The notes: a model not told the origin generated them from the letters alone. DNA of 64,000 nucleotides from an uncultured bacterium (GCA_964399495.1 CAYNQX010000015.1:7380-71379); one strand, 5' to 3'; counted from the stretch's first letter, positions 6,624 to 46,380 are shown. Made by a program: numbers and translations.

Positions 6624-6700
6624 GCGAGGGAAGGGTTCTAAGGAGCGCCTCTGAGCCGAGTCTTCGAGGCGAAGTGAAGCGACGTGAACCCTGACCGAGC
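6624..6700 (-). repeat. REP-like unit, long-loop variant, copy B
   Basis: Minus strand GCTCGG..AGGGTTC..CGCTTC..CTCGAAGACTCG..GAGGCGCT..GAACCCT; shares the CGCTTC/GAGGCGCT core with copy A and CTCGAAGACTCG with copy F. Confidence 0.65.
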
Positions 6701-9060
6701 TATTTCAGGAGCAGCATCTTCCCACAAACATTCCCCGCCGCGCCGCTCACGCGCACCAGATAGACGCCGCTGCCCAGGGACTCGCCGCGGTCGTCACGAC
6801 CGTCCCACTGCAGCTCGTGGCGACCGGCCGGCCACTCCTCGTTCAGCAGCACGCGCTGCAGACGTCCCTCGACGTCGTAGATCGACACGTTCCAGCGGCC
6901 CGGCTCGGGCAGATCGAAGCGGATCATGGTCGATGGGTTGAACGGGTTGGGCGCGTTGCCCACAAGGCGCAGCAGCGCCGGCGCCTCAGCGTCCCCGGCC
7001 GGCGTGGGATCGTAGACGACGTACATCGAATCGCCGCTGCTCGTGACGAAGCCGAGCGGGGTGTCGTTCACGTCCAGTACCGAGTTGCCGGTGAAGGGCA
7101 GGGCCATGGCGCCGTCCGCGGTACCGACGCCGGTGAAGTGGCAGTAGGCCACGGTGCCGGGATCGGCCACGACGCCGTCGGTGAAGCTCAGGTCGAAGTG
7201 GGCCACGGTGTCGTCGGTGGGCGTGTGGTCCGTGAAGATAAAGGTCAGGCCCGAGGTGGTGGCCCACTCGCCGGCCGTTATCGAGTCGAGGCGCACGTAG
7301 GTCTCGTCGAAGTCGAAGGTGAGATCCACGCTCTTCACGCCGCCCTGGGCGGGTGTGATGTCGACGGCCAGCACCAGTTGATCGTCGGTATTCACGGAGC
7401 TGACGGGGGGATCGATCGCCACCTGCCCCACGAGTTCCTCGGTGTCGCCCGTGCTCGCCTGCCAGACGCGCCAGCTCGTCTCGTCCTGGAGGAAGGCGGT
7501 CACGTTGAGATTGGCCTCGGTCCAGTAGGCCGGAATCGTCACCGGCACCTCGAAGCTCTGGGGGCCGACGGTCGGACTCACGACCAGGCCGGCCTCGGTG
7601 GGCAGCATGCGGCGCAGGGCCTGATGGTGCGTGTTGTGGCCATTGCCGCCGGCGAAGTAGTAGTCGTCCTCGGTGATGCAGACCTTCAGACGGTAGTCGC
7701 CCGCCGGGTTCAGCGGCTCCTTCACGTTCACGCAGGCCACGGCGGTGCTGTCGCCCGGACGCCAGGTGAGGTCGATGCAGCCGGGGCTCAGTATGCTCTT
7801 CCGCTGCTCGAACAGCGTCGTGTACTGGGCCGAGGTGGAGCCGCAGTCCTGGACGCCGTCCAGCCAGAAGTGCGGCGTGTAGTCGTAGCCCCACTGCGGC
7901 ACCAGCGTCTGGTTCTGTGCGGCGTTGTGCAGGTAGAGGATGTCGCCGCCGTTGGGCCACCAGGTATGAACCCGGATCATTGCGACATCATCACCCTGCC
8001 CGGGTAGCCAAGCGTCGAAGTAGTCCTCAGCGGGCGCACAGTAGCTACATCCAGCGTTGGTGTGCATCCAGCCCAGGGGCACGTGGACCTGCGTGTAGCT
8101 GTCGCAGGTACTCTGCGCGGTGTCGTTGCTGGTGTCCATGTCCGTGGCCAGGATGGAGGTGGCCTCGAACTCGTAGTAGTTGCCGGCGGTGACGAAGAAG
8201 CCGGGCATGGCCACGGTCTGCTGCTCGCCGACGTCGAGCTGCATGTTCACTCCCTCGTTGTACACCTCGACGCCGGACTCGTGAATCGTCAGCACCAGGC
8301 CGATGTCCTCGAGGTTGGCGCCCTTGTTCTCCACGACCACCTCGGGGCCGATGAGCTGGCCGTCGACGCACTGCTCGTCGTCGGGGCTGATCGACAGCAC
8401 GGCGATGTCGTGGGCGAAGGGCTCATAGATACGCACGTCGTCGATGTACCAGTCGTCGGCGTAGGAGCCGGTGTAGCGGAAGGCGACGTACACCACCGAC
8501 TCCCCCACGTAGTCCAGCAGGCTCACGGTGACGGGATCCCCCGCGAAGCCCTCGTCGATGCTGTGATTGGCGGGCGTCCAGTCCACGAGTGTCGTGAAGG
8601 AGGCCGTGTCGGTCTGGCTGGTGGTGCTGACCGCGATGTAGTGATGCTCGCCGTAGCCGGGCCAGTAGGCCTGATCCTCGTAGAACTCGAGGTAGGCCGC
8701 GCCGACGGTTGAGAGGTCGATCGCCGGCAGGACGAGCCACTCGTCCTGGCTCGTGCCCTGGACTCCGTAGTTCACCCACGCGCTGTAGGTGCCGCTGTGG
8801 GCCTTGGAGCTGGTCTGCGCCCAGGTGTGGGTGTTGCCCAGATTGATCACTTCCCAGCCCGCGGGCGGAAAGCTGCCCTCGAAACCCTCGTTGAACAGGT
8901 CGGTGCGATCGGAGTCGGAGGCCGGCGCCATGGATGTTCCCAGGACGGGCGCCGGTGTGGAGCCGTTCGACTCGTGGGCGAGGACGCCGCCCGCGACCAC
9001 CGTCATCAATGCGATCAGCACGAGCAGAGAAAGGATCTCCCGGATTCTCCCCTTCAGCAT
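6700..9060 (-). CDS. Secreted multidomain protein: choice-of-anchor J / cleaved-adhesin-like, Ig-like, Omp28-like thioredoxin fold (CSYC), cohesin-like, FlgD-Ig/T9SS-type C-terminal domain
   Basis: GGAGG RBS before ATG 9060; signal peptide; FNEGFEGSFPPAGW, DEWLVLPAIDL and DDWYIDDV motifs; HTNAGCSYC; tail PNPFNPST...IYDVEGR...WDGRDDRG...SGVY...KMLLLK. Confidence 0.85.
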   Translation of the reverse strand: MLKGRIREILSLLVLIALMTVVAGGVLAHESNGSTPAPVLGTSMAPASDSDRTDLFNEGFEGSFPPAGWEVINLGNTHTWAQTSSKAHSGTYSAWVNYGVQGTSQDEWLVLPAIDLSTVGAAYLEFYEDQAYWPGYGEHHYIAVSTTSQTDTASFTTLVDWTPANHSIDEGFAGDPVTVSLLDYVGESVVYVAFRYTGSYADDWYIDDVRIYEPFAHDIAVLSISPDDEQCVDGQLIGPEVVVENKGANLEDIGLVLTIHESGVEVYNEGVNMQLDVGEQQTVAMPGFFVTAGNYYEFEATSILATDMDTSNDTAQSTCDSYTQVHVPLGWMHTNAGCSYCAPAEDYFDAWLPGQGDDVAMIRVHTWWPNGGDILYLHNAAQNQTLVPQWGYDYTPHFWLDGVQDCGSTSAQYTTLFEQRKSILSPGCIDLTWRPGDSTAVACVNVKEPLNPAGDYRLKVCITEDDYYFAGGNGHNTHHQALRRMLPTEAGLVVSPTVGPQSFEVPVTIPAYWTEANLNVTAFLQDETSWRVWQASTGDTEELVGQVAIDPPVSSVNTDDQLVLAVDITPAQGGVKSVDLTFDFDETYVRLDSITAGEWATTSGLTFIFTDHTPTDDTVAHFDLSFTDGVVADPGTVAYCHFTGVGTADGAMALPFTGNSVLDVNDTPLGFVTSSGDSMYVVYDPTPAGDAEAPALLRLVGNAPNPFNPSTMIRFDLPEPGRWNVSIYDVEGRLQRVLLNEEWPAGRHELQWDGRDDRGESLGSGVYLVRVSGAAGNVCGKMLLLK

Positions 9061-9191
9061 GTCTGCCTCCCGTTGCGAATCAAGCATTTCCGGAATTCTC
9101 ACAGAATAGGGGTCCAATTATAGTATAGCAGATCATCCCTGCCATATCAGGAACTGATCAGAATTCTGTCAAAAATCGAGGGGAAGACGGC

Positions 9192-16807: not shown

Positions 16808-17758
16808 ATGCGATCCGCCATCTTTCTCGCGCTTCTTCTGCTCACCCTTCCATCGATTCTGTCGGCGCAAACTTCCGATGGTTTGCGGATGTTCCACCGG
16901 CGGGATTGCTATCTCGATCGTCTGCCCACCTTCACCACTGCCGAACTCGAGTTTTTGGCCGAGATCCCCGAATGCCCCAATGGAATCCTCTCGCTCTCCT
17001 TCCGAATCGCCGACTGGCCCTCGGCCTACCAGGTTCTGATCGTCGGTCAGACTTGGGATGCCGACGTCGTCGAGGGCGACCCGTTCTCAGGCCTGACGCT
17101 TCGATGGGACACCGCCAGGATGCCCGAAGTCCACTCCTGGCACGATCTCGGCGAGGTTCAGGCCATGGTAATGAACGTGGATCCGTTCTTCGATCCTCAC
17201 GTCGTGTACTGCGCCGAGGTCGTCGCGGAAGGCGCGGACGGCAGCCTACATTCCATCGATGGCCCACCCTTCATCCTGCTCTACGACGATAACTCGGGCG
17301 GCTATGGTTGCTGCATGGGTGACCAGTTTAACGGTCGGATTCTGAACATCGACCCGCCCGTGGAGAGCGCAATCGCCCTGCCGGACACCTGCGCCTTCGA
17401 TATTAGCTACCTGCAGTGCGATGAATGGCCGGCGGATTTCAGCTTTATGGTGTATCGGGATGGCGTCCTCGTGGACCAAGGAACGGACTTCGGAGAGAAG
17501 GGGATCCGTTTCCCGATCCTGGACACGAATCAGGACGGAATGGTCGAAGTGAGTGTCGGAATCACCAACGGTTTGGGACAGATTTGGACCTGGCAGTACT
17601 TCGTGGACGGCGTACCCGTCGAGAGCTCATCCGTATCGAAGGTCAAATCGCTCTACGAGACCCGCTACTCGAGTCCCCCCGGGGGAACACCCTCGCGAAC
17701 TAGCTTTCCGACTCCTGCCGCCGCTGAAAAAACAGCCGCAGGCTCAAAGAAAGACTAG
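16808..17758 (+). CDS. Secreted Cys-containing hypothetical protein, paralog 3 (probably extended by stop loss)
   Basis: Signal peptide; CPNGILSLSFRI, WDADVVEG..LTLRWD; the VESSSVSKVKSLY motif ends at 17656 but the frame runs 33 more codons into the convergent gene. Confidence 0.75.
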   Translation: MRSAIFLALLLLTLPSILSAQTSDGLRMFHRRDCYLDRLPTFTTAELEFLAEIPECPNGILSLSFRIADWPSAYQVLIVGQTWDADVVEGDPFSGLTLRWDTARMPEVHSWHDLGEVQAMVMNVDPFFDPHVVYCAEVVAEGADGSLHSIDGPPFILLYDDNSGGYGCCMGDQFNGRILNIDPPVESAIALPDTCAFDISYLQCDEWPADFSFMVYRDGVLVDQGTDFGEKGIRFPILDTNQDGMVEVSVGITNGLGQIWTWQYFVDGVPVESSSVSKVKSLYETRYSSPPGGTPSRTSFPTPAAAEKTAAGSKKD

Positions 17759-19898
17759 CCAGCTTCGTCAGCGCCGAATCGCCCCGGCTCGTCAGCACCA
17801 CCGGAATCCCGCAGCCGACGATGGCGCCGGCCGCGCTCAGCCCGCTCGAAACCGTGAGCGACTTGTAGACGCTGTTGCCCGAGTCGATGCCGGGCATTAT
17901 CAGGACGTCGGCGTTGCCCTGGATCTCCCCCCCAAAGCCCTTCTCCTCGGCGATGGCCGGGTCGACGGCCACGTCGAAACTCAAAGGCCCTTCCACCAGA
18001 CAGTCCGTGCGCTCCTCGTAGAGGGCCGCGATCTCGGCGGCCTCCACCGAGCTCTCGATGCGGGGGTTCACCTTTTCGATGGCGCTGATCACGGCCACCT
18101 TCGGCCGCGGCAGGTTGAGGCTGCGCGCCACGAAGAGCGCGTTCTCGAGGATGCGCTGCTTCGCGCGCTTGTCGGGCTCGATGTTGATGCCCGCGTCGCT
18201 GAGCAGCAGCAGCTTGCCGTCCTCGGGGCGATGGAACACCGCCACGTGGCTGAACAGCGCGCCCGGCTCCAGCCGGTCGTTGGCCTTGAGCCAGCGGAAG
18301 GTGGGCGCGAGGATCTCCTCGGTCTTCACCGAGCCCTTCATCAGCACCTGGCAGCGGCCCTGCTCGTACAGATCGAGGCAGTCGGCCACGGGATCTTCGG
18401 AGGGCACGAGCTCGAAGTCCTCGTCGGGCAGGCGCAGGCCGACTTCGGCCGCCAGCTTGCGGGTGCGCGCTTCGTCCCCCACCAGCAGGAAGCGGGCGAT
18501 CTTGTACTCGCCCTCCTCGGTGGCGCGGCGGGCGGCCTCGAGCGCGTCGTCGTTGTCGGAGCCCGCGATGGCGATGGTCGGACGGAAGAAGCGGTTCACC
18601 TGGCTCCGCGTCGCCTGGATCAGCTCCTCCAGGTTGCGGATCGGGCTGCCCGAGCGACGGCGCAGGATCGGCTTCTTGAAGACCGGCTGGTCGATGCGCA
18701 GGTCCTCGTGGCGCCGGTAGGCGTGGAGCATGTCGCGCTCCTCTTCATACTGACGAAGGCACGAGGGATCGAGCAGCGCGCGGGCCATGCCGGCCGCCAG
18801 GCTCTCCTGCTCGGCGCTGCCCGGCACGCGCACGATCGGCAGCAACCCGCCCACCTTGCGCTCGATCAGTTCCACCAGCTCCTCGCTGCGCGACAGGCCG
18901 CCTGTGAGCACGACGTAGTCCGGCCGGCCCCAGCCGGCGGCGCAGGAGAGCACGCCCTCGGCGATCTTCTGCGCGAAGAAGCGCAGCAGCAGGTCGATCT
19001 TGGCCGCCTGCTCCTGGGTGGCGCCGTGCTCGCGGAAGTCGAGCAGGGTCTTGAAGTCGTTGGTGCCGGCCAGCGCCAGCAGGCCGCCGTCCTTGAACAC
19101 GCCGCGGTGCAGCTCGTCGAGGCCGACGCGGTGGTCCTGGAGGGAGAGGATGAGGTCGTGCACCGGCAGCGCGCCGCTGCGGTTCATCGAGGGCAGGCCG
19201 CTGAAGGCGTTGATGACCCGCACGGCCTTGCCGCGGTGGTGGCGCAGCAGCGAGATGCCGCCGCCCAGGTGGGCGCTGACCACGCTGGCCTCGTCCGGGT
19301 CGATGCCGAACTCCCAGGCGCTCAGGCGCACGACGGCGCGGTGGTTGAGGTAGTGCGCGCTGCTGCCGTCGGTCTTGAAGGCGGGCAGGCCGGTCATGCG
19401 GCTCTCGATCTCGACCTCGTCGATGACCGGCGGATCCGTGATGGTGATGGGGATGTCCCTGTCCCCCATGTCGCCGAGGTCCTTGAGGGCCTGGGCGATC
19501 GGCACGGCCATGTTGGAGGCGTGGCGCAGGCGCGGATTGGCGAGATCCTCGAGCAGGGCCTCGCTGATGGGATAGGTGCCGCCGGGCACCGGGCGCAGCA
19601 GGCCGCCGCGGGCCGCGATGCCGTCGAGGGCGTGCAGGTCGATGCCCTCGTCGGCCAGCCAGCGCAGGATCAGCCCCGCGCGCTCCTCGGCGGTGTCCTC
19701 CGCGGCCGGGTCGAGATGCACCTCGAAGTCCGAGTGCTTCTCCAGGCCCTCGAAGTAGGAGACCTTCGTGGTGGTGGAGCCCGGATTGATCACCAGGATG
19801 CGATAGCCCTCCTCGGCCAGACGCGGGGCCAGTTCGTTGCCGAGGAGGCGCCGGAACAGCTCCAGGGGGGGCATCTTGCGCAGGTGGAGGGTCTTCAT
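17700..19898 (-). CDS. buk: Butyrate kinase - phosphate butyryltransferase fusion (732 aa)
   Basis: Buk motifs ILVINPGSTTTK, DPPVIDE, AHLGGGIS, GTND, LTGGL; then Ptb/Pta motifs LMKG, SDAGINIEP, EKVNP, EGPLSFD, GNSVYK, VVLTSR in one frame. Confidence 0.9.
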   Translation of the reverse strand: MKTLHLRKMPPLELFRRLLGNELAPRLAEEGYRILVINPGSTTTKVSYFEGLEKHSDFEVHLDPAAEDTAEERAGLILRWLADEGIDLHALDGIAARGGLLRPVPGGTYPISEALLEDLANPRLRHASNMAVPIAQALKDLGDMGDRDIPITITDPPVIDEVEIESRMTGLPAFKTDGSSAHYLNHRAVVRLSAWEFGIDPDEASVVSAHLGGGISLLRHHRGKAVRVINAFSGLPSMNRSGALPVHDLILSLQDHRVGLDELHRGVFKDGGLLALAGTNDFKTLLDFREHGATQEQAAKIDLLLRFFAQKIAEGVLSCAAGWGRPDYVVLTGGLSRSEELVELIERKVGGLLPIVRVPGSAEQESLAAGMARALLDPSCLRQYEEERDMLHAYRRHEDLRIDQPVFKKPILRRRSGSPIRNLEELIQATRSQVNRFFRPTIAIAGSDNDDALEAARRATEEGEYKIARFLLVGDEARTRKLAAEVGLRLPDEDFELVPSEDPVADCLDLYEQGRCQVLMKGSVKTEEILAPTFRWLKANDRLEPGALFSHVAVFHRPEDGKLLLLSDAGINIEPDKRAKQRILENALFVARSLNLPRPKVAVISAIEKVNPRIESSVEAAEIAALYEERTDCLVEGPLSFDVAVDPAIAEEKGFGGEIQGNADVLIMPGIDSGNSVYKSLTVSSGLSAAGAIVGCGIPVVLTSRGDSALTKLASLSLSLRLFFQRRQESES

Positions 19899-20158: not shown

Positions 20159-23100
20159 CTATTTCAGGAGCACGGCCTTGCCGGCCAGTCTCGTGTCGTC
20201 GGTGACCAACCGGTAGAAGTACACACCGGAACCGACCTGCGAACCGCGGTCGTCGCGGCCGTCCCAGTCGACGGCGCTGGCGCCGGCGGGCATCGTCGCG
20301 CCGCTCAGCAGCGTGCGGACCCTGCGGCCCTGCGTGTCGTAGACCGTCAGCTCCACCATCGCCGCCGCGGGCAGCTCGAAGCGGAGCGTGGTCTTGGGGT
20401 TGAAGGGGTTGGGCGAGGCCGCCAGCAGGCGCGCCCGCGTGGGCAGGGCCTCGGGCAGTTCGGTCATGGTGGGGTCGGCGAAGCCGGCGAGTATGAACTC
20501 GTCGACGCCGGCCTCCACCACCGAGCCGCTGCCCTCGTCCGCCGCGATGAAGCGGAACTGCACGGTGCTGGTGAGCTCGATGTAGTCGTCGAGCAGGAAG
20601 CTCACGAGCTGCCAGCTACGTTCGCTCGCGCTCGTGTTCTCCAGGTCCACCCAGTTCACGCCGTCGCCCGTCACCTGCACCTGCCAGATGTCGCTGCCCG
20701 GGTTGTTGCCGGTGTCGTTGGTGTACCAGCGACGGTAGCTCGCCGTCACCGCCAGCGAGGTCGACAGGTCGAAGACCGGGCTCATCAGCGTGGTCTTGCC
20801 GCCGTCCACGTCGTCGGCGCCCTGGGCGCCCGTCTCGGCGTTGCCGGTGATGAAGCAGAGCGTGCCGTCGGTGGACGCGTCGTCCTCGGGCTGCACCTGC
20901 TCGGCACCCTCAATTACACCCACCGGGTCCACCCGCACCCAGAGGCCGGTGGTGGCGTCGTCACCCGTGTCCCCCACCGTCCAGCCGGCGGCGACTTCCA
21001 TGTCCTCGTCCTCCACCGTCACGGCCATGAGCACCCAGAAGCTGTAGTACTCGTTCATGAGCATGGGGTCGCGGCTCGCGTTGCCGGCGATATCCTCGGA
21101 CTCGATCCAGTAGCGCACCATCGTGTTGACCCCCTGGCCGGGAATCTCCGCGCGGCAGAGGCCGGTGAGCGAGTTCACGAGGATCAGGGGAATCTCGACG
21201 CCCGGGCCGCCGTCCAGCGCGTAGTAGCAGCGCGAGCTGGTGATGGTGGAGAAGTCGTTGATGAAGGTCTCGACCACGTAGGGTCCCATGGCGTCGTCCG
21301 TGTGGGGCAGCACCGTCGTGCTCTCGATGTAGGGGCCGAGGATGTCGTCGAGCGCGAAGTTTTGCGTGGTCGTGATGTCCTCGATCACCGAGACGCCCGG
21401 GATCGACACCGGCGCGAAGCTCTCGTGCTCGGCCGTCACCGTGTAGACGCCCTCCTGCACGGGACCGGTGTAGTTGCCGGCGCCGTCGCTGAGGAAGGTC
21501 TGACCGGTCTCCACGATACGGACGCTCACGCCCGCCACCGGCGTGCCGCCGTTGCTCACGTTGCTCACGTATCCCTGAAGGGTGCCGGCCTGGAGCACGG
21601 TCACCAGCACGTCCTCCACGTGGGTGAGACGGTTGAAGCCGCTCACCGTGAGTGTGGCGTACTGACCGGGATCGGGCAGGTCGCCTTCGATGGCGATCTC
21701 CGCCAGGCCCGTGCCGTCCGCGAAGGCGGAACCGACGAACTGGCCGCCGTTGCTCAGCGCCACGAGGTTGCCCGGCTCCGTGTTCACCGAGAAGGTGGGC
21801 AGCAACGGATCGATGAGGCCGATATGGCTGGCGCTCACCGTCGCCGGCGAGTCCGTGCGCACGCGCAGACTCGGATCGCCGAAGATGGTCCAGAACTTCA
21901 TCTCGTTCTCGCCGCTGGAGCCGTACTCGTCGACCATCTGGCAGGCGCCGTTCACGCTGAGGCCGCCGAAGGTACGCTTCGCACCCGACACGAGCAGGTC
22001 GATGGTCTCGTCCTGCGCGCACATGGGCGGCGCCCAGCTCATGCTGATGGTCGAACCGTAGAATCCGATGGCGCCCGTGGGCTCGCCGCCGTTGGTCGCG
22101 CGCATCCAGGCCTCGCCGAAGCAGGTGCCGCTCTGGAACTCGCCCGTGTTGCAGGCCACGCTCGAGATGAAGGGGAGCATGTTGTCGTTGCTGAGCGCGT
22201 TCACGTGGGTGTTACTGTAGCCCGTGGAGCCCCAGCTCGTCAGCGAGCCGTGACCGCAGTAGTTGATGATGCTGCGGCCGTCGTTCAGGGCGTTCGTCAC
22301 CATGGCGGCCGTGCCGCCGTTGGTGTCGTAGATCTGGTCGACCAGCGTGTAGGTGAAGGCCAGGAGCTTGCCGCGGATCACGTCCATGTGCTCCCAGTCC
22401 GCCTCGCCGTCGTCGCCGATGCCCGAGCCCTCGGCCGAGGCGATGCCGACGCCCTGGTGATACCAGGCCGCGCCGGACTGCGGATCGCGCTCGTACTCCA
22501 CGCTGCGTTCGACCTGGGTCACCACCTGGGCGGCCGTCTCGGCGGAGAAGCGGCCCACGAACACTTCGGGGTAGGAATCGGCGCCGGCCAGGAAGCCGTA
22601 GCTCGGGTCCGACGCGCCGCCGTTGTTGTAGTAGGGAATCTGCGCGACGTCGCCCACCAGCACCACGAAGCACAGGCCCTCGGTGTCGTAGAGGTTCTGG
22701 ATGTAGGCCTTGATCTGTGTCGCCGTGGCGCCGACCTCGCTCACGTTCACGTGAGTGGTCGGAATGCCCATCTGATTCTTCCAGTCCACGAAGGGCTGGG
22801 CCGCCGAGTAGAAGGCGTCGTAGCTGATCACCAGCATCGACCCGACCTCGGGAATGCTCACGTAGCGGTCGCCCATCGCGCCCGCGCTGTTCAGGTAATG
22901 GGTCGAGTAGATCGACTCGAACTCCTGCACCGGCGCGGCCGGCTTGTGTGTGAGCACGTTCACGCGGCCGGGACCGTCGGCGAACACCTCCACCGTGAGG
23001 CTCGTCGTCACCTCGAGGGTGCTCGTGGCCGGGTGGTAGCGGAAGGGGTTCATCGCCAGGACGACGCCGCGCGTATCGCGCATGATGTAGGGCGTGTCCA

Positions 23101-23566
23101 GGTTCGCCGTGCGCTCGGGATACCACGCGTCGCCGGAGTAGAACGGATCGAAGGCGTAGCTCACCATCTCCGGGTCGACGTTGCGCAAAATGTTGCCCTT
23201 GCTGGGCGCCACGTCGAGCCCTGCGAAGGAGCGGGTCTCACTGTCGATGACGCGCAGGGTCATGGCCGCGTCGTCGGGGATGCGCAGCGATTCGCGGATC
23301 GTCGGCAGGGCCGGCAGGCCGCGCTCCATGTGCAGGGCGCGGGAGCCGAGCGTCACGGCCTGGTAGCCGCGGCCGTCGATCTCGACGTCGTTCAGATCGA
23401 AGTGGTGGATCTCCAGGCGCAGCAGGGTGCGTTCGGGAGTCGACTGGAGCACTTGAATGTCGAAAGCATCCGCGTTCGCGCTCAGCTCGATCCTCTGTCC
23501 GGCGAAGGCCGGCGAAGTGGAGAGCAGGAGCAGCGCCGCGAGGAGGAGCAGCGGCAGTCTCTTCAT
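20159..23566 (-). CDS. C25 (gingipain-like) cysteine peptidase 1 with propeptide, C25_C, carboxypeptidase-regulatory-like and further Ig/jelly-roll domains and FlgD-Ig/T9SS-type C-terminal domain (1135 aa)
   Basis: Signal peptide; propeptide GLPALPTIRESL..PSKG; FVDWKNQMG, VFVGRFS; catalytic His in NYCGHGS and Cys in SVACNTG; tail PNPFNPKT...WDGRDDRG...SGVYFY...LLK. Confidence 0.92.
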   Translation of the reverse strand: MKRLPLLLLAALLLLSTSPAFAGQRIELSANADAFDIQVLQSTPERTLLRLEIHHFDLNDVEIDGRGYQAVTLGSRALHMERGLPALPTIRESLRIPDDAAMTLRVIDSETRSFAGLDVAPSKGNILRNVDPEMVSYAFDPFYSGDAWYPERTANLDTPYIMRDTRGVVLAMNPFRYHPATSTLEVTTSLTVEVFADGPGRVNVLTHKPAAPVQEFESIYSTHYLNSAGAMGDRYVSIPEVGSMLVISYDAFYSAAQPFVDWKNQMGIPTTHVNVSEVGATATQIKAYIQNLYDTEGLCFVVLVGDVAQIPYYNNGGASDPSYGFLAGADSYPEVFVGRFSAETAAQVVTQVERSVEYERDPQSGAAWYHQGVGIASAEGSGIGDDGEADWEHMDVIRGKLLAFTYTLVDQIYDTNGGTAAMVTNALNDGRSIINYCGHGSLTSWGSTGYSNTHVNALSNDNMLPFISSVACNTGEFQSGTCFGEAWMRATNGGEPTGAIGFYGSTISMSWAPPMCAQDETIDLLVSGAKRTFGGLSVNGACQMVDEYGSSGENEMKFWTIFGDPSLRVRTDSPATVSASHIGLIDPLLPTFSVNTEPGNLVALSNGGQFVGSAFADGTGLAEIAIEGDLPDPGQYATLTVSGFNRLTHVEDVLVTVLQAGTLQGYVSNVSNGGTPVAGVSVRIVETGQTFLSDGAGNYTGPVQEGVYTVTAEHESFAPVSIPGVSVIEDITTTQNFALDDILGPYIESTTVLPHTDDAMGPYVVETFINDFSTITSSRCYYALDGGPGVEIPLILVNSLTGLCRAEIPGQGVNTMVRYWIESEDIAGNASRDPMLMNEYYSFWVLMAVTVEDEDMEVAAGWTVGDTGDDATTGLWVRVDPVGVIEGAEQVQPEDDASTDGTLCFITGNAETGAQGADDVDGGKTTLMSPVFDLSTSLAVTASYRRWYTNDTGNNPGSDIWQVQVTGDGVNWVDLENTSASERSWQLVSFLLDDYIELTSTVQFRFIAADEGSGSVVEAGVDEFILAGFADPTMTELPEALPTRARLLAASPNPFNPKTTLRFELPAAAMVELTVYDTQGRRVRTLLSGATMPAGASAVDWDGRDDRGSQVGSGVYFYRLVTDDTRLAGKAVLLK

Positions 23567-23668
23567 GGGTAGTCTCCCTCGTGTCGGCGCCGCGCATTCG
23601 GCACCGAAGCCCAATTCCAGACAATTCTATCAGAAAAGGCGCTCCACACACCACTCCTCTGCGCGCAA

Positions 23669-23881: not shown

Positions 23882-26158
23882 CTACTTCAGGAGCATCATC
23901 TTCTTAGTCTCGCTGAGCTCGTCGCTCTGGAGCTTGTAGAAGTAGATGCCGCTGCCGACGCTGTGGCCGGCGTCATCCTTGCCGTTCCAGACCACGCTGT
24001 GCTGGCCGGCGGCCATGTCGCCCGACTGCAGCGTGCGGACGTGCTGGCCGGTGGCGCTGAATACGTCCAGGGCAACCTCACCCGCGTTCGGCAGGGCGAA
24101 GTTGATCGTGGTCTTGGGGTTGAAGGGGTTCGGGAAGTTCTGACCCAGCGCGAAGGCGCTCGGAGCGAACTCGTCCACCGGCGTCAGGTCGGCGATCACC
24201 TCGACCGAGGCCAGGTAGGTGACCCGGTTGAAGTTGCTCACGACCACGTCGAGGTCGGCCTCGACGAGGCTGCGGGAGAAGGTCACCACGGCCGTGCCGC
24301 TGCCGTTCGCCACCGCGGAGCCGACGAACTCGCCGTCCTGGCTCAGGCCCACCAGGGCGCCGGCCTCGGACTGCACGGTGAAGCTGCTCGCGTCGAGCTG
24401 GATCGAGGCGTCGTGGCTCACGGCCATGGAGCCGGGCGCCGCGGTGCGGACGCGCATGCTCGGGTCGCCGAAGATCGTCCAGTTCTTGAACTCGGTGCGG
24501 CCGTTGCCGCCGTACTCGTCCATCATCTGGCAGGAGCCGTTGAAGAAGAGACCGCCGATGGTGCGCTTCTCCTCGGCCACGAGCAGGTCGGTGATCTCGT
24601 CCTGGCCGCACATGGGCGGCGCCCACTGCTGGTTCACGGTGGAGGCGTACATGGCGACGGCGCCCGAGGGCTCGCCGCCGTTGCTGGCGCGCAGCCAGGC
24701 CTCGGCGAAGCAGGTCGCGCTCGGGAAGTTGCCGTTCACGCAGGCCACCGACACGATGAAGGGCAGCATGTTGTCGTTGGTGAGCTGGTTCACGTTGGTG
24801 TTGTTGAAGCCGCTCGTCGACCAGGCCTGGGTGCTGCCGTGGCCGGTGTAGTTCATGAAGCCGCGACCCTCGTTCACCGCGTTGCGCACGGCAGTGGCGG
24901 AAACGCCGGTGTTCGGGTAGAAGCGATCCACCTCGGTGTAGGTGAAGCCGAGCAGATCCAGACGGATGTTGTCCTGGTGCTGCCAGTCGGCCTCGCCGTC
25001 GTCCCCGTAACCGGCGCCCTCGCTGGAGCCGATGCCGGAGCCCTTGGCGAACCAGTCGGAGCCGGCGACCGCGTCGCGCTCGTACTCGATCGCCTTGGTC
25101 ACCTGGTTGGTGACCTCGCTCGTGTTGGTGGCGCTCATGCGGCCCACGAAGGCCTCGGGGTAGTCGTCGCTGCCGGCCAGGAGGCCCAGCATCGGATCGG
25201 ACGCGCCGCCGTCGTTCATGTTGTAGGGAACCTGGGGGCCGTCGCCGATGAGCAGTACGTAGCAGACGCCCTCGGTGTCGTAGGCGTTCTGCACGTAGCT
25301 CTTGAGCTGGCCGCCGGTGGAGCCGGCGGTGCTCACGGGAACCATGGTCGTGGGCACGCCCATCTGGTTCTTCCAGTCCACCAGGGGCTGCGTGGCGCCC
25401 ATGAAGGCGTCGTAGCAGATCACCAGCATGCTGCCGCCCTCGGGAACGCTCGCGTAGCGGTCGCCGGCCGCGGACGCGGCGCCGTAGTTCAGATAGTGAC
25501 GGTCGAAGATGCGCTCGAACTCGTCCACGCGCTTGGCGGGACGCTGCGTGAGCACGTTCACCTGGCCGGCGCCCGCATCGAACACCTCGACGGTGATCGA
25601 GGTGTAGACGCGCAGGGTCCGGCTGGCCGGGTTGTAGCGGAAGGGATTCACCTCGACCACCATGCCGCGGGTATCGCGCATGATGTAGGGCGCGTCCAGG
25701 GCGGCCACGTCGGCCGGGTACCACTGGTCGCCGCCGTAGAAGGCGTCGAAGCTGTGGCGCACCAGCGCGGGATCCACGTTGCGGGTGAGGCTGCCCTTGG
25801 AGGGCGCCACGTCGATGCCCGAGAGCTCGACGTAATCCGCGTCGACGATCCTCACGCCCATGGCGCGGTCGTCGGGAATCACGATGGATTCGCGCAGGGT
25901 GGGCAGCGCCGGCAGGCCGAGCTCCATGCTCTTGGCGCGGCGGCCCAGGGTGACCGTGCTGTACTGGGCGCCGTCGATGAAGACGGACTCCAGCATGAAG
26001 TCGTTCACCTGATAGTGGATAACGGTGTTGTGCAGGTCGGACTGCAGGACACGGATGTCGTACTGGCTGTCGCTCTTCTGGAGTACCACTTGCTGACCGG
26101 CAAAGGCCGAACCGGCAACAAGAGACAGCATAGCCAGGAGCAGAAACAGTTTTCTCAT
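23882..26158 (-). CDS. C25 (gingipain-like) cysteine peptidase 2 with propeptide, C25_C and FlgD-Ig/T9SS-type C-terminal domain (758 aa)
   Basis: Signal peptide; GLPALPTLRES, LVDWKNQMG, AFVGRMS; NYTGHGS and SVACVNG catalytic motifs; tail QNFPNPFNPKT...SGIYFYKL...KKMMLLK. Confidence 0.92.
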   Translation of the reverse strand: MRKLFLLLAMLSLVAGSAFAGQQVVLQKSDSQYDIRVLQSDLHNTVIHYQVNDFMLESVFIDGAQYSTVTLGRRAKSMELGLPALPTLRESIVIPDDRAMGVRIVDADYVELSGIDVAPSKGSLTRNVDPALVRHSFDAFYGGDQWYPADVAALDAPYIMRDTRGMVVEVNPFRYNPASRTLRVYTSITVEVFDAGAGQVNVLTQRPAKRVDEFERIFDRHYLNYGAASAAGDRYASVPEGGSMLVICYDAFMGATQPLVDWKNQMGVPTTMVPVSTAGSTGGQLKSYVQNAYDTEGVCYVLLIGDGPQVPYNMNDGGASDPMLGLLAGSDDYPEAFVGRMSATNTSEVTNQVTKAIEYERDAVAGSDWFAKGSGIGSSEGAGYGDDGEADWQHQDNIRLDLLGFTYTEVDRFYPNTGVSATAVRNAVNEGRGFMNYTGHGSTQAWSTSGFNNTNVNQLTNDNMLPFIVSVACVNGNFPSATCFAEAWLRASNGGEPSGAVAMYASTVNQQWAPPMCGQDEITDLLVAEEKRTIGGLFFNGSCQMMDEYGGNGRTEFKNWTIFGDPSMRVRTAAPGSMAVSHDASIQLDASSFTVQSEAGALVGLSQDGEFVGSAVANGSGTAVVTFSRSLVEADLDVVVSNFNRVTYLASVEVIADLTPVDEFAPSAFALGQNFPNPFNPKTTINFALPNAGEVALDVFSATGQHVRTLQSGDMAAGQHSVVWNGKDDAGHSVGSGIYFYKLQSDELSETKKMMLLK

Positions 26159-26295
26159 TCCATCCCCCTTCCAAAGGGCTGAGAAAGAGTAGGTCGACCG
26201 AAATTCTGTAAGTGGAAACAGACAGAGATCAGCGGGTCTATGGGGAAAGCTCAATTATACCAGATCGCGCGCGATGGAACAACGGCATTACGAGG

Positions 26296-26370: not shown

Positions 26371-27077
26371 TTAGCAGCCGAGGTAGAGGGCGAGGATCGA
26401 GCCCAGGTAGCTGTCCTCAGTCCCCCGCAACAAGGAGATGATGTCCCGCATCTTCCAGATGCGATACTCGGTGCCGCCGGCGGTCTGCACCGGGATCATG
26501 TGGATCCTAACTCGATCCTGCACCAGCCAGGCGTTGATGTTCGAATCGCCGATGTTGGACTGCAGCGAAAAGTTCATGTACGTCTGGTAGAAGCGTACCT
26601 GGGTGCCCTCGGGGTAGGGATCGCCCTCGACGTGCTGCTCGTCCGCGGGGACCGCCCAGGTTCCCTCCGCCGTGAGATCCAACGAGACGGATTGCACGCC
26701 CGGCACCTCGGAAGCGTCGATGGGATTCGCTCCAGGTTGCCCGGTGAGGAAGTTCTGCATCGTGCCCACCATGCAATCGTAATCGATGGACAACGGGAAG
26801 GTCTGCCCCGGTTCGGCGCCCGACTGATCGAAGTAGAACTTGAAAGGCTCGTAGGTCATCCGGTCATCCGACTCCAGCACGCCGTCGTAGAGGATCTCGT
26901 CGCGCAGGGCGATCCAGTCCTGGGCTTCCATCGCAAGAGGAAGTTCGCCACCACGTTGTCGGGAGTGTCGGCGGAGAGATACTCCACGCCGGGGTCGGTG
27001 ATGCCGTTCTTCTTGTCTTCGAGACAGCCCGTGCTCAGCAGCGAAACCAGAAGCAACGAGACGATCAACCACCGCAT
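26371..27077 (-). pseudogene. Lipoprotein split by an apparent 1-nt deletion (or sequencing error) at about 26939
   Basis: RBS and lipobox MRWLIVSLLLVSLLSTGC...TPDNVVANF in one frame; protein-like continuation LAMEAQDWIALRDEILYDG...TEDSYLGSILALY in the other; one extra base in AACTTCCTCTTGCG joins them into about 235 aa. Confidence 0.75.
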
Positions 27078-27375: not shown

Positions 27376-28437
27376 CTACCGAAGCAGCACCAGCTTCTCC
27401 GAACTCGAAACGCCCCCACTCACCAGACGCAGCAGGTAGAGCCCGCTCGGCAGGGTGTGCCCCGCTTCGTCCGTACCGTCCCATGTGAACTCGTGCCGAC
27501 CCTCCCCCAGTAGCCCCGACTGGAACACTCGCAGCAAGCGACCGTCGACGCCATGCACACTCAGGCGCGCTCGGCCCGCGGCCGGCATGGTCACGGGGAT
27601 CACGGTGTGCGGATTGAAGGGGTTCGGATGGGCGGCGAGCAGCCGCGGCTCCGCGATCGGCAGCTCTCCTGCCGCCACGGCGCCGAGTTCCGTCACGCCG
27701 ACCCCCGCGCACTGCAGCGCCAGGTGATCGTCGGGCGTGTCCGGGGCGTCGAGCTGCAGCCAGGCGATTACGCGGCAGTGATCCGGATCGAAGTTGAAGG
27801 GTCCCTCCGGGTCTGGCAGCACCGCGGACAGCAGGACCGAAGCTGTCTGGGGCGGCGCTCCGGCGAGATCCACCACGGTCCCCGCCCCGTCGGGCAGCAT
27901 GTCGAAGAGCTGGTGGTCGTGCCAGTCGACGCCGTTGATCGGGTAGTAGATCTCCGACTCGGTGAGGGCCACGTAGAGCCTGACGAGTCCGGGCGGCGGC
28001 TCCGTATCGGTGACCGCGGTCACCTGCAGTGTCAGCTCGCGCGACGAGGGATCCCAGGTGCCCCGGATCGACAGCGTGGCCGGCGAGGGCCAGCCCTTGT
28101 GCTGGTCGTATCGCCAGGCGAGGGTGGAATGATCCCCCATCCACAGGCCATCCATGCGGAAGGTCGGCGTGGCCAGGACGTCGTAGAACTCCTGGCGCAG
28201 CAGCACGTCTTCCGGGTCGATCAGGTTGAAGGGATCGAGGGGATAGGTCCAGCCGACGTGGTACTCCACGGCCTCCACGTCCGCATGGGCGGCAGCGAAC
28301 TCCGCCAGCGCCGTCTCCGACGACGGGCAGGTGTGTCAGGCGGTATGGGAGAACAGCTCCACGAACACGTTGCGCTCCGCCGCCTTCGCGGAGATCGACG
28401 CGGCGAGCAGGGCCGCGACGATCAGGACACGACGCAT
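27376..28437 (-). CDS. Candidate secreted selenoprotein: Omp28-like thioredoxin fold with UxxC and FlgD-Ig/T9SS-type C-terminal domain (353 aa)
   Basis: ORFs 28336-28533 and 27376-28278 are in the same frame, separated only by TGA at 28338-28336: signal peptide-AERNVFVELFSHTA-U-HTCPSSETAL...EYHVGW; tail HPNPFNPHT...WDGTDEAG..PSGLY...KLVLLR. Confidence 0.8.
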
Positions 28438-28584
28438 GATGAGCCCCTTTCGTCCCCCACAGTCTAGACGGCGACGGCGGGCAGGTCTAGCGATGGCCCC
28501 GATCCCGGCTCGAGCCCGGGCAGGCGCCGTCACCCGATGGGCGGGAAAAACGCGCCATCAGGTCGATTTCGACCACGATTGCCG

Positions 28585-28613
28585 TTGTCCAAACCCCCGG
28601 AAAGGAGTATCTT
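28585..28613 (+). promoter_or_regulatory. Sigma70-like promoter of the gap operon
   Basis: TTGTCC-N17-TATCTT, 70 nt upstream of ATG 28684. Confidence 0.55.
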
Positions 28614-28683
28614 CGCCGCAGCAAGGCAACATTGTTCGGTCGCCGAACAATCGTCCCTTTCCACTCAGCCAGAGAGGACAACC

Positions 28684-30701
<2,018 letters not shown>

Positions 30702-31957: not shown

Positions 31958-33766
31958 CTAGGGATCGAGAAAGCTCCCCCGCCGCTTGGGCGTGAGCTCG
32001 GCCCTCTCGAAACTGCGCGCCGCCCAACGCCAGGCGGCGGCCGCAACCAGAACCAGGATCAACCCGAAGTAGATCCGCGCCCCGGGAATCGTCGAATCCA
32101 GGTGCCGCGCGAGCAGCTCCACGCCGCCCGAGAGCAGGTAGTCCTGGATGACCCCCGCCATCAGCAGCGCATAGACGCCGAGGTGAACCACCATCACCAG
32201 CACCAGGATCACGCCGAAGGCGACGTTGCGACGCGTATCCGAGTGCGCCGCGCGGAAGCCGCTGAAGTAGGGCGGCAGCAGAACCAGTGACAGCAAGGTG
32301 GCCAGGCCGAGCAGGATCAGGAACCAGGGCGCGCTGCGCTTCGAGCGCAGATCCGGATAGTGCTCGCGGATCGCGATGCGGTTTTCGCCCAGCACCATCT
32401 CGCTCCGCACGCGCAGCGCGCCGGCCCCGTCGACCCGCAGGTAACGTCGCTGCAGCTCCTCGTCCGGAAGCGCCACACCGTAGACGGCCTCGACCGCCCG
32501 GGCGAGCTGCCACGCGAAGAACTCGGGGCTGCAGCCGCTCGGCGCGCTGAAGGGCGAGTAGATCCGGGCGTCCAGGCCCTTCGCCAGCGGCGCGCTCCAG
32601 ACCTGATGGCTCTCGCCCCAGGGCGCGACGGCCGGCGGCGGCGCGCCGTCTCGAGCGATCTCGCAGACGAAGGTGGGCACCACGAGCATGTCCGCCTCTT
32701 CCGCCTGGAGCACGCGGAGACGCTCCTGGCGGAAACCGCCCAGGCGATGCGTCGTCTCGCCGATGACGTAGCCCACCGACAGCAGCAGGACGCAGGGCAG
32801 CATCAGAATGGCGAGGAGCCTCTGCCGCGACACGGGCAGCGCATCGAAGGGCGCGAGCAGCTGCAGGGGCTTGCCCACCATCGCGAAGATCATGTAGACG
32901 GTGATGGGCAGGAAGGTGAGCCGGATGGGCAGCAGGTCGGGAAACAGGCCGCCCAGCACCGCGCCGAAGAACAGCAGGAACAGATAGCCGAACAGCAGGG
33001 CGGCGAAGTGCTTGGCGGTGCCCGTGAGCACTGTGACGGCCAGCAGCAGGCCGCCGTGAACGCCGCCCTCCGTGTCGAAGGAGGCCGGCCGCGCGAGGGG
33101 CTGTCGCATCCCGGCCGTGGCGCCCGGAGCCTCCAGGGTGATCACCGCGGGCAGGCCGCGCCAGGTCCGCGCCAGCAGGATCAGCGCGGGAGCCAGGAGC
33201 AGCAGCGCCGACGCGGGCGGCCGTTGCGACAGCAGAAGAACCAGGGCGAGAACCACCAGCACCTGAAGCAAGCTGCCGGGCCAGTACCGCTTGCCGACCT
33301 CATCCCCCGCGCGATCCCGCCACGACGACTCCCGCCAGGCCACGAGCAGCAGCAGGCCGGCGGGCAACTGCAGCAGGCCGGAGACGCCGAGGACGGAATC
33401 GACGAGCCCCGCGTCGATTCTGTCCAGAAGCCGCAGCGCCCCGGAGATGATCCCCACGATGATCGCCAGGCTCACCATCCCCGCGATCGTCACGGCCGTC
33501 ACATGCGCCAGCCAGATCCTGCGCGCCGGAATCGGCAGGGTCAGGTCGAAGGCGGCGCAGCGGCGTCGATCGCGGTCGGTCAGGAAGAACAAGGTCACGA
33601 AGAACCAGGCCAGCGCGATGAGGATCTCCGGCGCGAGCTCCTGCCGCCTCGCCGCCGCGTAGGTGATGAGCCCCAGGCTCGCCGTGGCGGCGGCGATCAT
33701 CATCACGAGCCAGCGCGGCAGGCCGCGGAGGGCGTCGTGACGTCGGATCAGGGCGATAATCGACAT
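31958..33766 (-). CDS. Multi-pass membrane protein, probable ABC permease (paralog B)
   Basis: Many hydrophobic segments; extracytoplasmic APWGESH...AWQLARAVEAVYG segment shared with the 33774 gene; last gene of the ABC operon. Confidence 0.7.
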   Translation of the reverse strand: MSIIALIRRHDALRGLPRWLVMMIAAATASLGLITYAAARRQELAPEILIALAWFFVTLFFLTDRDRRRCAAFDLTLPIPARRIWLAHVTAVTIAGMVSLAIIVGIISGALRLLDRIDAGLVDSVLGVSGLLQLPAGLLLLVAWRESSWRDRAGDEVGKRYWPGSLLQVLVVLALVLLLSQRPPASALLLLAPALILLARTWRGLPAVITLEAPGATAGMRQPLARPASFDTEGGVHGGLLLAVTVLTGTAKHFAALLFGYLFLLFFGAVLGGLFPDLLPIRLTFLPITVYMIFAMVGKPLQLLAPFDALPVSRQRLLAILMLPCVLLLSVGYVIGETTHRLGGFRQERLRVLQAEEADMLVVPTFVCEIARDGAPPPAVAPWGESHQVWSAPLAKGLDARIYSPFSAPSGCSPEFFAWQLARAVEAVYGVALPDEELQRRYLRVDGAGALRVRSEMVLGENRIAIREHYPDLRSKRSAPWFLILLGLATLLSLVLLPPYFSGFRAAHSDTRRNVAFGVILVLVMVVHLGVYALLMAGVIQDYLLSGGVELLARHLDSTIPGARIYFGLILVLVAAAAWRWAARSFERAELTPKRRGSFLDP

Positions 33767-33773
33767 GGGGCTC

Positions 33774-35576
33774 CTAACTCTCGTACTCCACCAGGAAGAT
33801 GCGTTTGGGCATGGGCAGCTCGATGGCGTGGAAGATGCGCAGGATCAGGGCGTAACAACCCGCGGTCAGCAGGGCGTTCATCGCCCAGAGCCAGGGTGTC
33901 GTGAGGGCCGCCGGCAGGGCCTCGACCCAGCCCCGCAGGACCGTGGGCAGGAACACCTCCATGAACTCGAGTTCAGCCCAGCCAAGGATGTCGCCCAGCA
34001 GGACGAGGGTGGCCGCAAGCACCAGCAGCACGGTCGTGGCCGGCACGAACACCATGAACAGGCGTCGCGGACCGCGCGCCCGGTTCGCGGGGAGGGACAT
34101 CGCCACGAAGAAGGTGCCGAAGAGAATCATGAAGCTCGAGCCCAGGGCCAGGCAACGCGAGCGCAGCGGAGAGTCGAGTCCCCGTCCGGAGCTCCATCGT
34201 TTGCAATCCAGGCAGTCGACTACCTTGGCGTCGGGCTGCCAGGCCGATGCAAGCTCGGCGGGATCCGGCTCGCCGTAAACGGCCGCGCGCGCGCGCGCCA
34301 CCTGCCAGGCCGCGAATCGGTCGCTGCTCTTCTCGCCCCACGTGTAGGGGTTGTACACCGCCATCGACCAGCCCGCCACGAGTCGCTTCACCTCGGGTCG
34401 ATGACTCTCGCCCCAAGGGGCCGTCACGAGCTCGGCCTCACCGTTCGGCGCCCGCTCCCAGAACTCGGGCGGAACGTGCAGCTCCTCGTCGTAGAAGCGG
34501 ATCTGCGCGCCGCCAGGATTGATCGCCTGGGTGGCTCCCCATAGCATCGCCCCGACGCCGATGAGCAGCAGGAAGGGCACGATGCCGAAGGGCAGCAGCG
34601 CGCGACGCGGAATCGGCAGATGGTCGAAGCGCTGGACACGCGGAAGGCTGTAGGCCAGCAGCGCCCAGCACCAGACGAGGATGAACAGCAGGTAGGGCAT
34701 CACCGTGCGGCCCTCGTGGTAGGCCTCAATTACGGCCCAGCTGTAGAAGAGGACCGTGGGGAAGATGAGCCAATGGAGCGGGTTGTTCGTCACCATGCGG
34801 GTGATCACCCGGAATCGCAGCCAGCGCGCCGCGGCGGGCGTGTCCCTCGGAAGCTCTCCCAGGTTGCCGTGGTCGGCGGCACGGTGTGCGTCGCCGGTGA
34901 GCGGTTCGGGATCGGCCCCGTCCTCGAGCCGGGCCGAGACCAGGATGAAGCGGTTCGGCAGACGCAGGAAGAGCCAGGCATACAGAAGCATCGCCGCGCC
35001 GAAGACCGAGACGATGAGGGCCGTCCACGGTCGGGTGAAAAGGATCGCCATCAGCACCGCCGCCGCGAGCACGCTCGAGTAGACCACGTACCATGAATCG
35101 ATCTTCTGCTGCTGAAGACGCGGGCTGGGCAGCTGCAGGCAGACGGTGAGCAGCAGGAGCCAGGCCGCCTGGTGACTGCCCCAGGTCAAGGTGCCGATGT
35201 CCAGGAACGGTCGCCCGGCCGCGGGGAAGCGTAGGGCGAGGATCATCGTGAAGATCGCCAGGGGTAGCAGCCATCCCGCCACCACCATGACGGACCGTGA
35301 GAGCCACAGACGACGCGGGCTGAGCGGCAGCGAGAGATCGAGGCGGCGGCAACGCATCCAGTAGCCGCTCGCCACGAGCAGGAACAGCCAGAGCAGGATC
35401 GCGCAGATCGAGAGGATCATCGCTCCGACGTCGAGCCGGGCCGGAGCGTCGAGGCCCAGCTCCTGCGGCATCTGAGACAGGATGAAGCGCAGAAGCAACC
35501 CCATGAAGATGGGGAGCAGGATCGTAATCCTGAAGGTGGTCAGCACCGGGTCCTGTCTCAGCAGCGTGAGGTTCAC
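33774..35576 (-). CDS. Multi-pass membrane protein, probable ABC permease (paralog A)
   Basis: Hydrophobic segments, DLSLPLSPRRLWL, APWGESH...AWQVARARAAVYG; coupled to the ATPase gene. Confidence 0.7.
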   Translation of the reverse strand: MNLTLLRQDPVLTTFRITILLPIFMGLLLRFILSQMPQELGLDAPARLDVGAMILSICAILLWLFLLVASGYWMRCRRLDLSLPLSPRRLWLSRSVMVVAGWLLPLAIFTMILALRFPAAGRPFLDIGTLTWGSHQAAWLLLLTVCLQLPSPRLQQQKIDSWYVVYSSVLAAAVLMAILFTRPWTALIVSVFGAAMLLYAWLFLRLPNRFILVSARLEDGADPEPLTGDAHRAADHGNLGELPRDTPAAARWLRFRVITRMVTNNPLHWLIFPTVLFYSWAVIEAYHEGRTVMPYLLFILVWCWALLAYSLPRVQRFDHLPIPRRALLPFGIVPFLLLIGVGAMLWGATQAINPGGAQIRFYDEELHVPPEFWERAPNGEAELVTAPWGESHRPEVKRLVAGWSMAVYNPYTWGEKSSDRFAAWQVARARAAVYGEPDPAELASAWQPDAKVVDCLDCKRWSSGRGLDSPLRSRCLALGSSFMILFGTFFVAMSLPANRARGPRRLFMVFVPATTVLLVLAATLVLLGDILGWAELEFMEVFLPTVLRGWVEALPAALTTPWLWAMNALLTAGCYALILRIFHAIELPMPKRIFLVEYES

Positions 35577-42632: not shown

Positions 42633-46379
<3,747 letters not shown>

Positions 46380-46380
46380 G

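Follow-up and report, generated by a model that had tools for sequence, protein, structure and literature searches.

A 64,000-nucleotide stretch of DNA from an uncultured bacterium (GCA_964399495.1 CAYNQX010000015.1:7380-71379; "the window" hereafter means this whole stretch) carries on its minus strand, at 27376..28437, two adjacent open reading frames (ORFs). Very probably they form a single gene, whose product would be an exported, thioredoxin-like protein with selenocysteine (Sec, U) in place of an active-site cysteine. This reading is supported because an in-frame TGA is paired with Cys codons across relatives, because the TGA is followed by a covarying hairpin that is absent in the Cys forms, and because a thioredoxin-like fold is found within an architecture resembling that of type IX secretion system (T9SS) cargo. 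An earlier note, made from the sequence alone, had proposed an exported Sec protein with a T9SS-like domain, and the pairing, the hairpin and the fold with its architecture bear this out, Sec insertion, the secretion route and the redox role being what we infer from them. The find is solid but unsurprising, given that the protein belongs to a family predicted in 2008.

An in-frame TGA at an active-site cysteine position

By direct reading the gene begins with an ATG at 28437-28435 (this and the other features of the gene are on the minus strand), 6 nt downstream of a purine-rich AAAGGGG (28444..28450) that would be, from sequence alone, a candidate ribosome-binding site. With read-through of the UGA it translates into 353 codons followed by a TAG at 27376-27378. 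Between ATG 28437 and TAG 27378-27376 the sole internal stop in this frame is the TGA of codon 34 (28336-28338), and our translation agrees with the earlier note, which had reported this single stop and the reading ELFSHTA-U-HT-C-P: the sequence around UGA34 reads VFVELFSHTA-U-HT-C-P. The N-terminus, MRRVLIVAALLAASISAKA/AERNVFVELFSHTA-U-HT-C-PSSE, consists of a signal peptide, a hydrophobic strand and then U-x-x-C, the signal peptide being predicted at codons 1-19 (MRRVLIVAALLAASISAKA; 28381..28437), with a probable A-K-A cleavage site and without a lipobox Cys. Alignment with relatives makes codon 34 the proposed Sec, first residue of a U-H-T-C redox motif, and the TGC of Cys37 (28327..28329), an invariant column of the family alignment (A2), would supply UxxC with its resolving cysteine.

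The locus is divided, in ORF lists as in public gene calls, into an ORF of 33 aa and another of 297-300 aa. The 251 nt flanking the TGA show no differences among seven contigs that come from independent assemblies of different samples and runs, so that a sequencing or assembly error is excluded; the earlier note had left room for reads with TGC or TGT, and the codon is TGA in all seven assemblies. The coding signature is the same on both sides of the TGA, with a GC content at third codon positions (GC3) of 0.91 in codons 1-33 and 0.87 in the rest of the gene, which rules out a chance open frame for codons 1-33. TGA terminates 18 of the 38 well-supported genes of the window, and the genetic code there is therefore standard. 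No sigma-70-type promoter or intrinsic terminator consensus was found in a search of the flanks of the selenoprotein gene. A scan of the window for other TGA-split frames with redox motifs gave 697 matches and was discarded as uninformative, because long frames free of TAA and TAG occur in all frames of sequence with 67% GC.

Relatives were gathered by an exhaustive phmmer search with residues 35-270 as the query (E-value, E, up to 1e-3), which returned 220 relatives of two classes: full-length proteins, and gene calls beginning just past the motif. The full-length relatives are single continuous ORFs in which a signal peptide is followed by (D/E)RxVLxExFTNTxCxxC, and all 39 that were aligned have Cys at the position of the window TGA, giving CxxC. 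In the N-terminally truncated relatives examined, an in-frame TGA stands after the signal peptide at the first position of UxxC in 12 out of 12 cases (these sites include the window gene, and three are tandem paralogs on one contig). The closest relative (70% identity; JGI metagenome 3300072015) shows the same split: its 300-aa gene call is preceded, 162 nt upstream and in frame, by an ORF of 34 aa. A metagenome scan for a sister subfamily with the motif IRYHxWWP..DPFY returned 80 loci, of which 71 could be classified, the first CxxC codon being TGA in 49 and TGY in 22, with 9 unclassified. The alignment of homologs at this codon and the search for other TGA-split Omp28-like genes, both proposed in the earlier note, thus give Cys in every aligned full-length relative and TGA in every truncated one examined (11 besides the window gene), as well as in the 49 loci of the sister subfamily.

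The window itself holds a Cys form. The gene at 6700..9117 on the minus strand encodes a choice-of-anchor J protein with an Omp28-like domain containing CSYC and a FlgD-Ig tail; the CSYC (residue 357, window 8049..8038), which the earlier note had singled out at 8038-8049, does belong to a real paralog, residues 351-513 of which share 29% identity with the window protein over 170 aa (E 1e-8), the first Cys being aligned to the TGA. The product of this paralog has 805 aa, with the choice-of-anchor J domain at residues 74-230 and the Cys-form Omp28-like thioredoxin domain at about 340-560 and an unassigned region ahead of the FlgD-Ig tail, and the same domain layout was seen in the relatives P0152, P0153 and P0155.

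A SECIS-like hairpin downstream of the UGA

A hairpin resembling a selenocysteine insertion sequence (SECIS) is found at 28308..28326 on the minus strand, separated from the UGA by a 9-nt spacer and made up of an eight-column stem, seven columns of which are paired in the window, and a GGA loop at 28316-28318. All 12 Sec-form sites of the window's group have this layout in common: the spacer measures 9 nt, the stem reaches at most 8 bp, and the loop, 17 nt past the UGA, is GGA without exception. Bacterial SECIS elements have been described as stem-loops that follow the UGA directly and whose small apical loop contains a conserved G (PMC1088965, PMC2398784), and the layout agrees with this description.

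In the alignment of the 12 sequences, 87.5% of the stem cells are paired against 61.9% in column shuffles, with none of 500 shuffles as high; seven of the eight stem pairs show compensatory changes, on both sides, and stem registers shifted by 1-3 columns reach at most 57% pairing. As a control for coding constraint, synonymous codons were resampled with each peptide held fixed. The Sec-form sites natively have 7.0 of 8 pairs where 4.6 would be expected (Fisher combined p 6e-9), and the window hairpin has 7 pairs against an expectation of 3.4 (p 0.01; minimum free energy, MFE, z -2.6). Since the native pairs exceed those of the synonymous resampling, the hairpin is structured beyond the level imposed by the protein. 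When a covariance model was trained on the other 11 sites, with the window left out, it found 28294-28347(-) at 39.8 bits (E 3e-11) and no second site in the 64 kb on either strand, the next match being at 16 bits; at its corresponding site the Cys paralog reaches 10 bits, with 2 of 8 pairs in the SECIS register. Support for the predicted window hairpin comes from comparison across relatives. No Rfam family matched within the window. The second-best match of the SECIS model, at 25311-25336(+) (16.3 bits, E 0.0016), is a stem-loop only, without a UGA and antisense to a C25 peptidase gene, and is most likely a chance GC-rich hairpin.

The Sec forms of the sister subfamily have a different and highly conserved hairpin, CUGAUCUG-GUCU-UAGAUCAG, with a GGUC-type loop that we take to resemble the SECIS loop of Escherichia coli fdhF. 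Their mean MFE is -15.6 kcal/mol versus -11.8 kcal/mol in the Cys forms at equal GC (p 8e-4), and the Cys forms are without the hairpin. This second SECIS type was seen in loci L019-L097 (in L027, for example, at about 18-41 nt past the UGA) and coincides with the peptide ADLVLDQL, found in Sec forms only; it appears that the RNA of the sister subfamily determines which residues follow the active site. Further kinds of hairpin occur in other sister members, such as L054, L071 and L083. Across the family there seem to be two or more distinct kinds of SECIS, each with an influence on the peptide just past the active site.

Family membership, fold and proposed export

The family is already known: NCBIfam NF045500, "Omp28-related selenoprotein", is GOS_C, the hypothetical protein that is equated with it in Table 1 of PMC13188914. 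GOS_C was predicted in 2008 by Zhang and Gladyshev as a protein with UxxC, a thioredoxin (Trx)-like fold and SECIS-like elements and with no known function, from an original set of 74 Sec sequences and 312 Cys homologs (PMC2398784). The window family shares with it the Sec as first residue of UxxC, the Trx-like fold, the existence of Cys homologs, the SECIS-like hairpin just past the UGA and a function presumed to be thiol redox. Homology to NF045500 is found for the window protein at E 1e-4 and for relatives down to 1.4e-19 over most of the domain, so the novelty that the earlier note had left undecided is limited to a divergent clade. Judged from its sequence, the window protein is a divergent and unannotated member of this predicted selenoprotein family. 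Its clade differs from GOS_C in lying outside the curated NF045500 equivalog, though homologous to it, in coming from a lineage with 67% GC in SUTE22-1 metagenome samples and not from Global Ocean Sampling (GOS) surface seawater, and in having its own hairpin type, with the GGA loop 17 nt past the UGA. The Sec-form relatives score 30-70 bits against NF045500, and pipelines using its cut-off would probably miss these Sec clades, because none of the tested ones reaches it.

A search with P0021, an abundant Cys-form relative, returned 2,368 relatives at E up to 1e-10, some of them named "Omp28-related outer membrane protein" or "T9SS type A sorting domain-containing protein" and assigned to Zixibacteria, and about half of the best 120 of these 2,368 are N-terminally truncated. 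In some lineages, which are Zixibacteria-like, most genes appear to be of the Sec form. The DsbA-like, DsbG-like, thiol:disulfide interchange and TonB-dependent receptor families are extracytoplasmic. Selenoprotein members of each are listed in a 2026 review (PMC13188914), and the "unusual location for Sec chemistry" of the earlier note is accordingly overstated.

The N-terminal Omp28/DUF1223-like domain (residues 20-265; 27643..28380) would consist of two parts: a thioredoxin-like one that contains UxxC, the YH motif with H60, D68 and, as candidate cis-Pro, P91, and after it a beta-sandwich. The C-terminal FlgD-Ig/T9SS type A-like sorting domain (residues 286-353; 27379..27582) is matched by Pfam FlgD_ig with 37.3 bits against a gathering threshold (GA) of 27, and the family profile matches FlgD structures, with the PorU and PG93 tails marginal. 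At the N-terminus the window protein has weak matches to DUF1223, NF045500 and NF033782 "Omp28 family lipoprotein"; among aligned relatives, PF11551 and NF045500 are matched in 20 of 22 and DUF1223 in 8 of 22. The family profile also finds the thioredoxin-fold structures 2AXO (DUF1223; 4e-6) and 1FO5 (1e-5), and the invariant columns of alignment A2 are U/C34, C37, H60, D68, P91, G97, G186 and Q228.

The likeness to Omp28 consists in the PF11551 matches of the relatives (E up to 0.001, the best 2.4e-20) and in the Omp28 structure 2R2C, which covers part of the P0021 model (124 aligned columns, template modelling score, TM, to target 0.72-0.79). The relationship of the window protein to Omp28 is, by these comparisons, transitive and at the superfamily level; it differs from the Omp28 lipoproteins (PF11551/NF033782) in its predicted standard signal peptide, in the missing lipobox and in the additional FlgD-Ig/T9SS tail. 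With DUF1223 (PF06764; 2AXO, Atu2684) it shares a thioredoxin-like N-terminal region in which CxxC is followed by a conserved (Y)H motif. The DUF1223 match of the window protein has E 4e-4, under the Pfam gathering score, and Foldseek compares 2AXO with the P0021 model at 5e-8; however, the motif of 2AXO is a Cys form (CASC), and there is no T9SS tail in the 2AXO match.

The AlphaFold (AF2) model that we used is that of P0021, computed from an alignment of 49 sequences including that of the window. It has a predicted local distance difference test score (pLDDT) of 87.9 and the order beta-alpha-beta-alpha-beta-beta-alpha, with CxxC (residues 39-42) between beta1 and alpha1 (strands 29-35, 60-66 and 98-101; helices 42-55, 75-91 and 110-121), and the thioredoxin part is followed by a beta-sandwich, a linker and a C-terminal beta-sandwich. 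The alignment together with this model makes the window protein thioredoxin-like by prediction. The best full-length match of the model in the PDB is Porphyromonas gingivalis HBP35 (5Y1A; E 5e-15, TM 0.57/0.63), followed by 2AXO, the Omp28 domain 2R2C and, for the tail, FlgD. HBP35 binds hemin and shows thioredoxin activity, for which both cysteines of the active site are needed; its C-terminal domain takes it to the surface by way of the Por/T9SS system (PMC2907840, PMC3120885). It resembles the window family in its signal peptide, its thioredoxin-like domain with a dithiol motif and its beta-rich middle part, has a T9SS C-terminal domain to which the T9SS type A-like tail would correspond, and differs in having Cys instead of Sec, the comparison being made via a relative 28% identical to the window protein; hemin binding and attachment to anionic lipopolysaccharide (A-LPS) are properties of HBP35, to which the window family is likened by structure alone. 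In a literature search we found no paper that ties the GOS_C family to HBP35 or to T9SS.

In the proposed mechanism, the hairpin 9 nt past UGA34, with its 7-bp stem and GGA loop, would recruit SelB with Sec-tRNA(Sec), so that the UGA is decoded as Sec. The 19-residue signal peptide would then take the protein across the inner membrane, and the FlgD-Ig/T9SS-type C-terminal domain would probably direct its transfer to the cell surface, both steps being suggested by sequence features. According to the alignment and the family model, the active site U34-H-T-C37 would lie between beta1 and alpha1 of the thioredoxin-like fold, ahead of the Omp28-type beta-sandwich. By analogy, extracytoplasmic substrates could undergo thiol/selenol-disulfide exchange with Sec as the attacking nucleophile and Cys37 as the resolving residue, and heme or metal binding may be an alternative or added role of the U34/C37 protein. 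The closest characterised analogue of such a function is HBP35, as a T9SS-exported surface thioredoxin and hemin binder. We put forward tentatively, as a possibility slightly less likely than not, that the Omp28/GOS_C-like selenoproteins, including that of the window, are T9SS cargo on the cell surface and structural counterparts of HBP35.

Competing explanations, genomic setting and significance

The alternative that survives best keeps the Sec residue and changes its task, U/C-x-x-C with His60 and Asp68 serving to bind heme or a soft metal (Hg, Cu) at the surface and not to catalyse redox reactions. It draws on hemin binding by the best structural match, HBP35, on the invariance of His60 and Asp68 near the motif, on a Sec-form relative (locus L014) that stands beside MerR, MerT-HMA, thioredoxin_3 and CopZ-type genes, and on a CusABC-type efflux system and FeoAB in the window, not adjacent to the gene. 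However, gene context varies among relatives, and HBP35 also has its Cys-dependent thioredoxin activity, both roles being compatible; we regard a selenoprotein for binding in place of catalysis as rather unlikely.

Read-through of the UGA without selenium, by a near-cognate Cys or Trp or by other recoding in a host without a Sec pathway, would fit the lack of Sec machinery within the 64-kb window, and other kinds of recoding, too, might in principle be promoted by a hairpin that follows a stop codon. Yet TGA is the normal terminator of 18 of 38 window genes, the site is the catalytic Cys of CxxC, which is the classic Sec position, the hairpin has the published features of bacterial SECIS elements (PMC1088965, PMC2398784), and GOS_C, to which the protein is related, is recognised as a family of selenoproteins, all of which makes this explanation improbable.

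Decay of a Cys-form Omp28-like gene by a nonsense mutation from TGC or TGT to TGA needs one base change, and it would be in keeping with the two ORFs of the public gene callers and with the Sec machinery not being visible within the window. Such a pseudogene is strongly disfavoured, and in our estimate very improbable, when set against the split kept in the 70%-identical relative, the TGA at the same codon in 11 other relatives of several clades and in 49 of the 71 classified sister-subfamily loci, the full coding signature on both sides with no more stops or frameshifts, and the covarying hairpin that follows the TGA in TGA forms only. Equally slight is the chance of two separate products, a 33-residue exported peptide and a protein of about 300 aa started without a signal peptide at GTG 28278 or nearby, as the automatic annotation and the presence of that GTG would have it, since the downstream protein would begin within the thioredoxin-like domain, lacking beta1, the active-site motif and a signal peptide but retaining a C-terminal sorting domain that requires prior export, the 20 codons from TGA to GTG are conserved family sequence including Cys37, and the Cys-form homologs are all single ORFs.

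Some observations weigh against a selenoprotein exported by T9SS and modelled on HBP35. No selA, selB, selD or tRNA-Sec was found within the 64-kb window (ARAGORN, Rfam, Pfam), and the Sec trait of the organism is unverified, as 64 kb of its genome are covered. Taxonomy offers no prior on Sec decoding because the lineage could not be placed: the GTDB species genomes contain nothing close to the window protein, and the matches of the window MetH, in genomes of mixed phyla, do not exceed 61% identity. None of the window genes scanned encodes T9SS machinery (PorK/L/M/N, Sov, PorU/V), and the tail of the window protein scores 21.9 bits with TIGR04183 Por_Secre_tail, whose cut-off is 23. The two-ORF split in the 70%-identical relative is known from its ORFs, with TGA as the presumed stop codon. 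Against NF045500 the window protein scores 20.8-21.7 bits with a cut-off of 200, and it was filed as a divergent member because 21.7 bits falls far short of that value; it has no PF11551 match at E up to 1. The structural evidence is that of P0021, only about 28% identical to the window protein, an earlier AF2 model from a shallow 8-sequence alignment including the window sequence having been poor (pLDDT 53) and not used, and the sequence-profile match to HBP35 is insignificant (E 0.27), making that link structural only. Folded singly, the window hairpin does not surpass dinucleotide shuffles in stability (z -0.49), and the single-sequence fold was replaced by the comparative tests because the stability of one GC-rich sequence is hardly informative.

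Two large gingipain-like cysteine peptidase genes lie a short way downstream of the selenoprotein gene, at 20159-23614(-) and 23882-26254(-), both with Propeptide_C25, Peptidase_C25 and FlgD_ig/Por_Secre_tail tails, and a neighbouring C25 peptidase passes PF18962. The C25 peptidases and the selenoprotein are likely cargo of one secretion route. A functional coupling between them was considered and found unsupported, the closest relative and other members having different neighbours; the gene neighbourhood varies among relatives and therefore gives no functional clue. Divergent from the selenoprotein gene are two tandem glyceraldehyde-3-phosphate dehydrogenase genes, at 28537-29706(+) and ~29700-30701(+), a pair also present in the matching public contigs (L001). 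Farther away, a gene for an 882-aa multihaem c-type cytochrome (Cytochrome_C7, CIII and c3 repeats; 40024-42672(+)) adjoins a CusABC-like efflux system of the resistance-nodulation-division (RND) type at 42633-49675(-), the membrane-fusion protein of which has heavy-metal-binding (HMBD) repeats. The GC content dips to 0.60 at 15900-17800, versus about 0.67 elsewhere, over the ORFs 15890-16753 and 16808-17758 on the plus strand, and this stretch may be foreign DNA. Well-supported genes (GC3 >0.85) without a Pfam or NCBIfam match are found in 26371-27072(-), 31958-35576(-) and 13965-14999(+); one of them, of 233 aa, separates the selenoprotein gene from those of the C25 peptidases, and two of about 600 aa follow an ATP-binding cassette (ABC)-transporter ATPase.

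Among the relatives, Sec-form Omp28-like genes occur in tandem arrays, with three in L008 (3824-7181) and two in L016 (2872-4933), and another Sec-form gene is found in L015 (2127-3206). These three loci are syntenic, with, in this order, GatD-like (Asparaginase/GatD_N) and GatB_N-domain genes, one to three Sec genes, dUTPase_2 and DUF456. A GatD/GatE-type amidotransferase pair is an archaeal hallmark, which makes it odd beside T9SS-tailed genes. In L014 (862-3660) the Sec-form gene adjoins MerR, MerT-HMA, Thioredoxin_3/glutaredoxin-like, zf_CopZ and cation-efflux genes, neighbours that hint at a metal (Hg/Cu) context in that lineage.

With regard to annotation, two "hypothetical" ORFs of 33 and about 300 aa would be replaced by one exported selenoprotein of 353 residues, and the same mis-call affects many relatives, given the truncation of about half of the best 120 P0021 relatives and the TGA in 49 of 71 classified metagenome loci. 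Existing models of bacterial SECIS elements have been called incomplete (PMC12013277), and the matched Sec and Cys forms, with their two hairpin types, are a natural data set for better ones. For a family of unknown function there is also a concrete hypothesis, namely that its members resemble HBP35, as surface thioredoxins or heme-binding proteins, and leave the cell by T9SS. If it is true, anoxic-sediment bacteria would have a selenol-based redox or heme/metal-handling site outside the cell.

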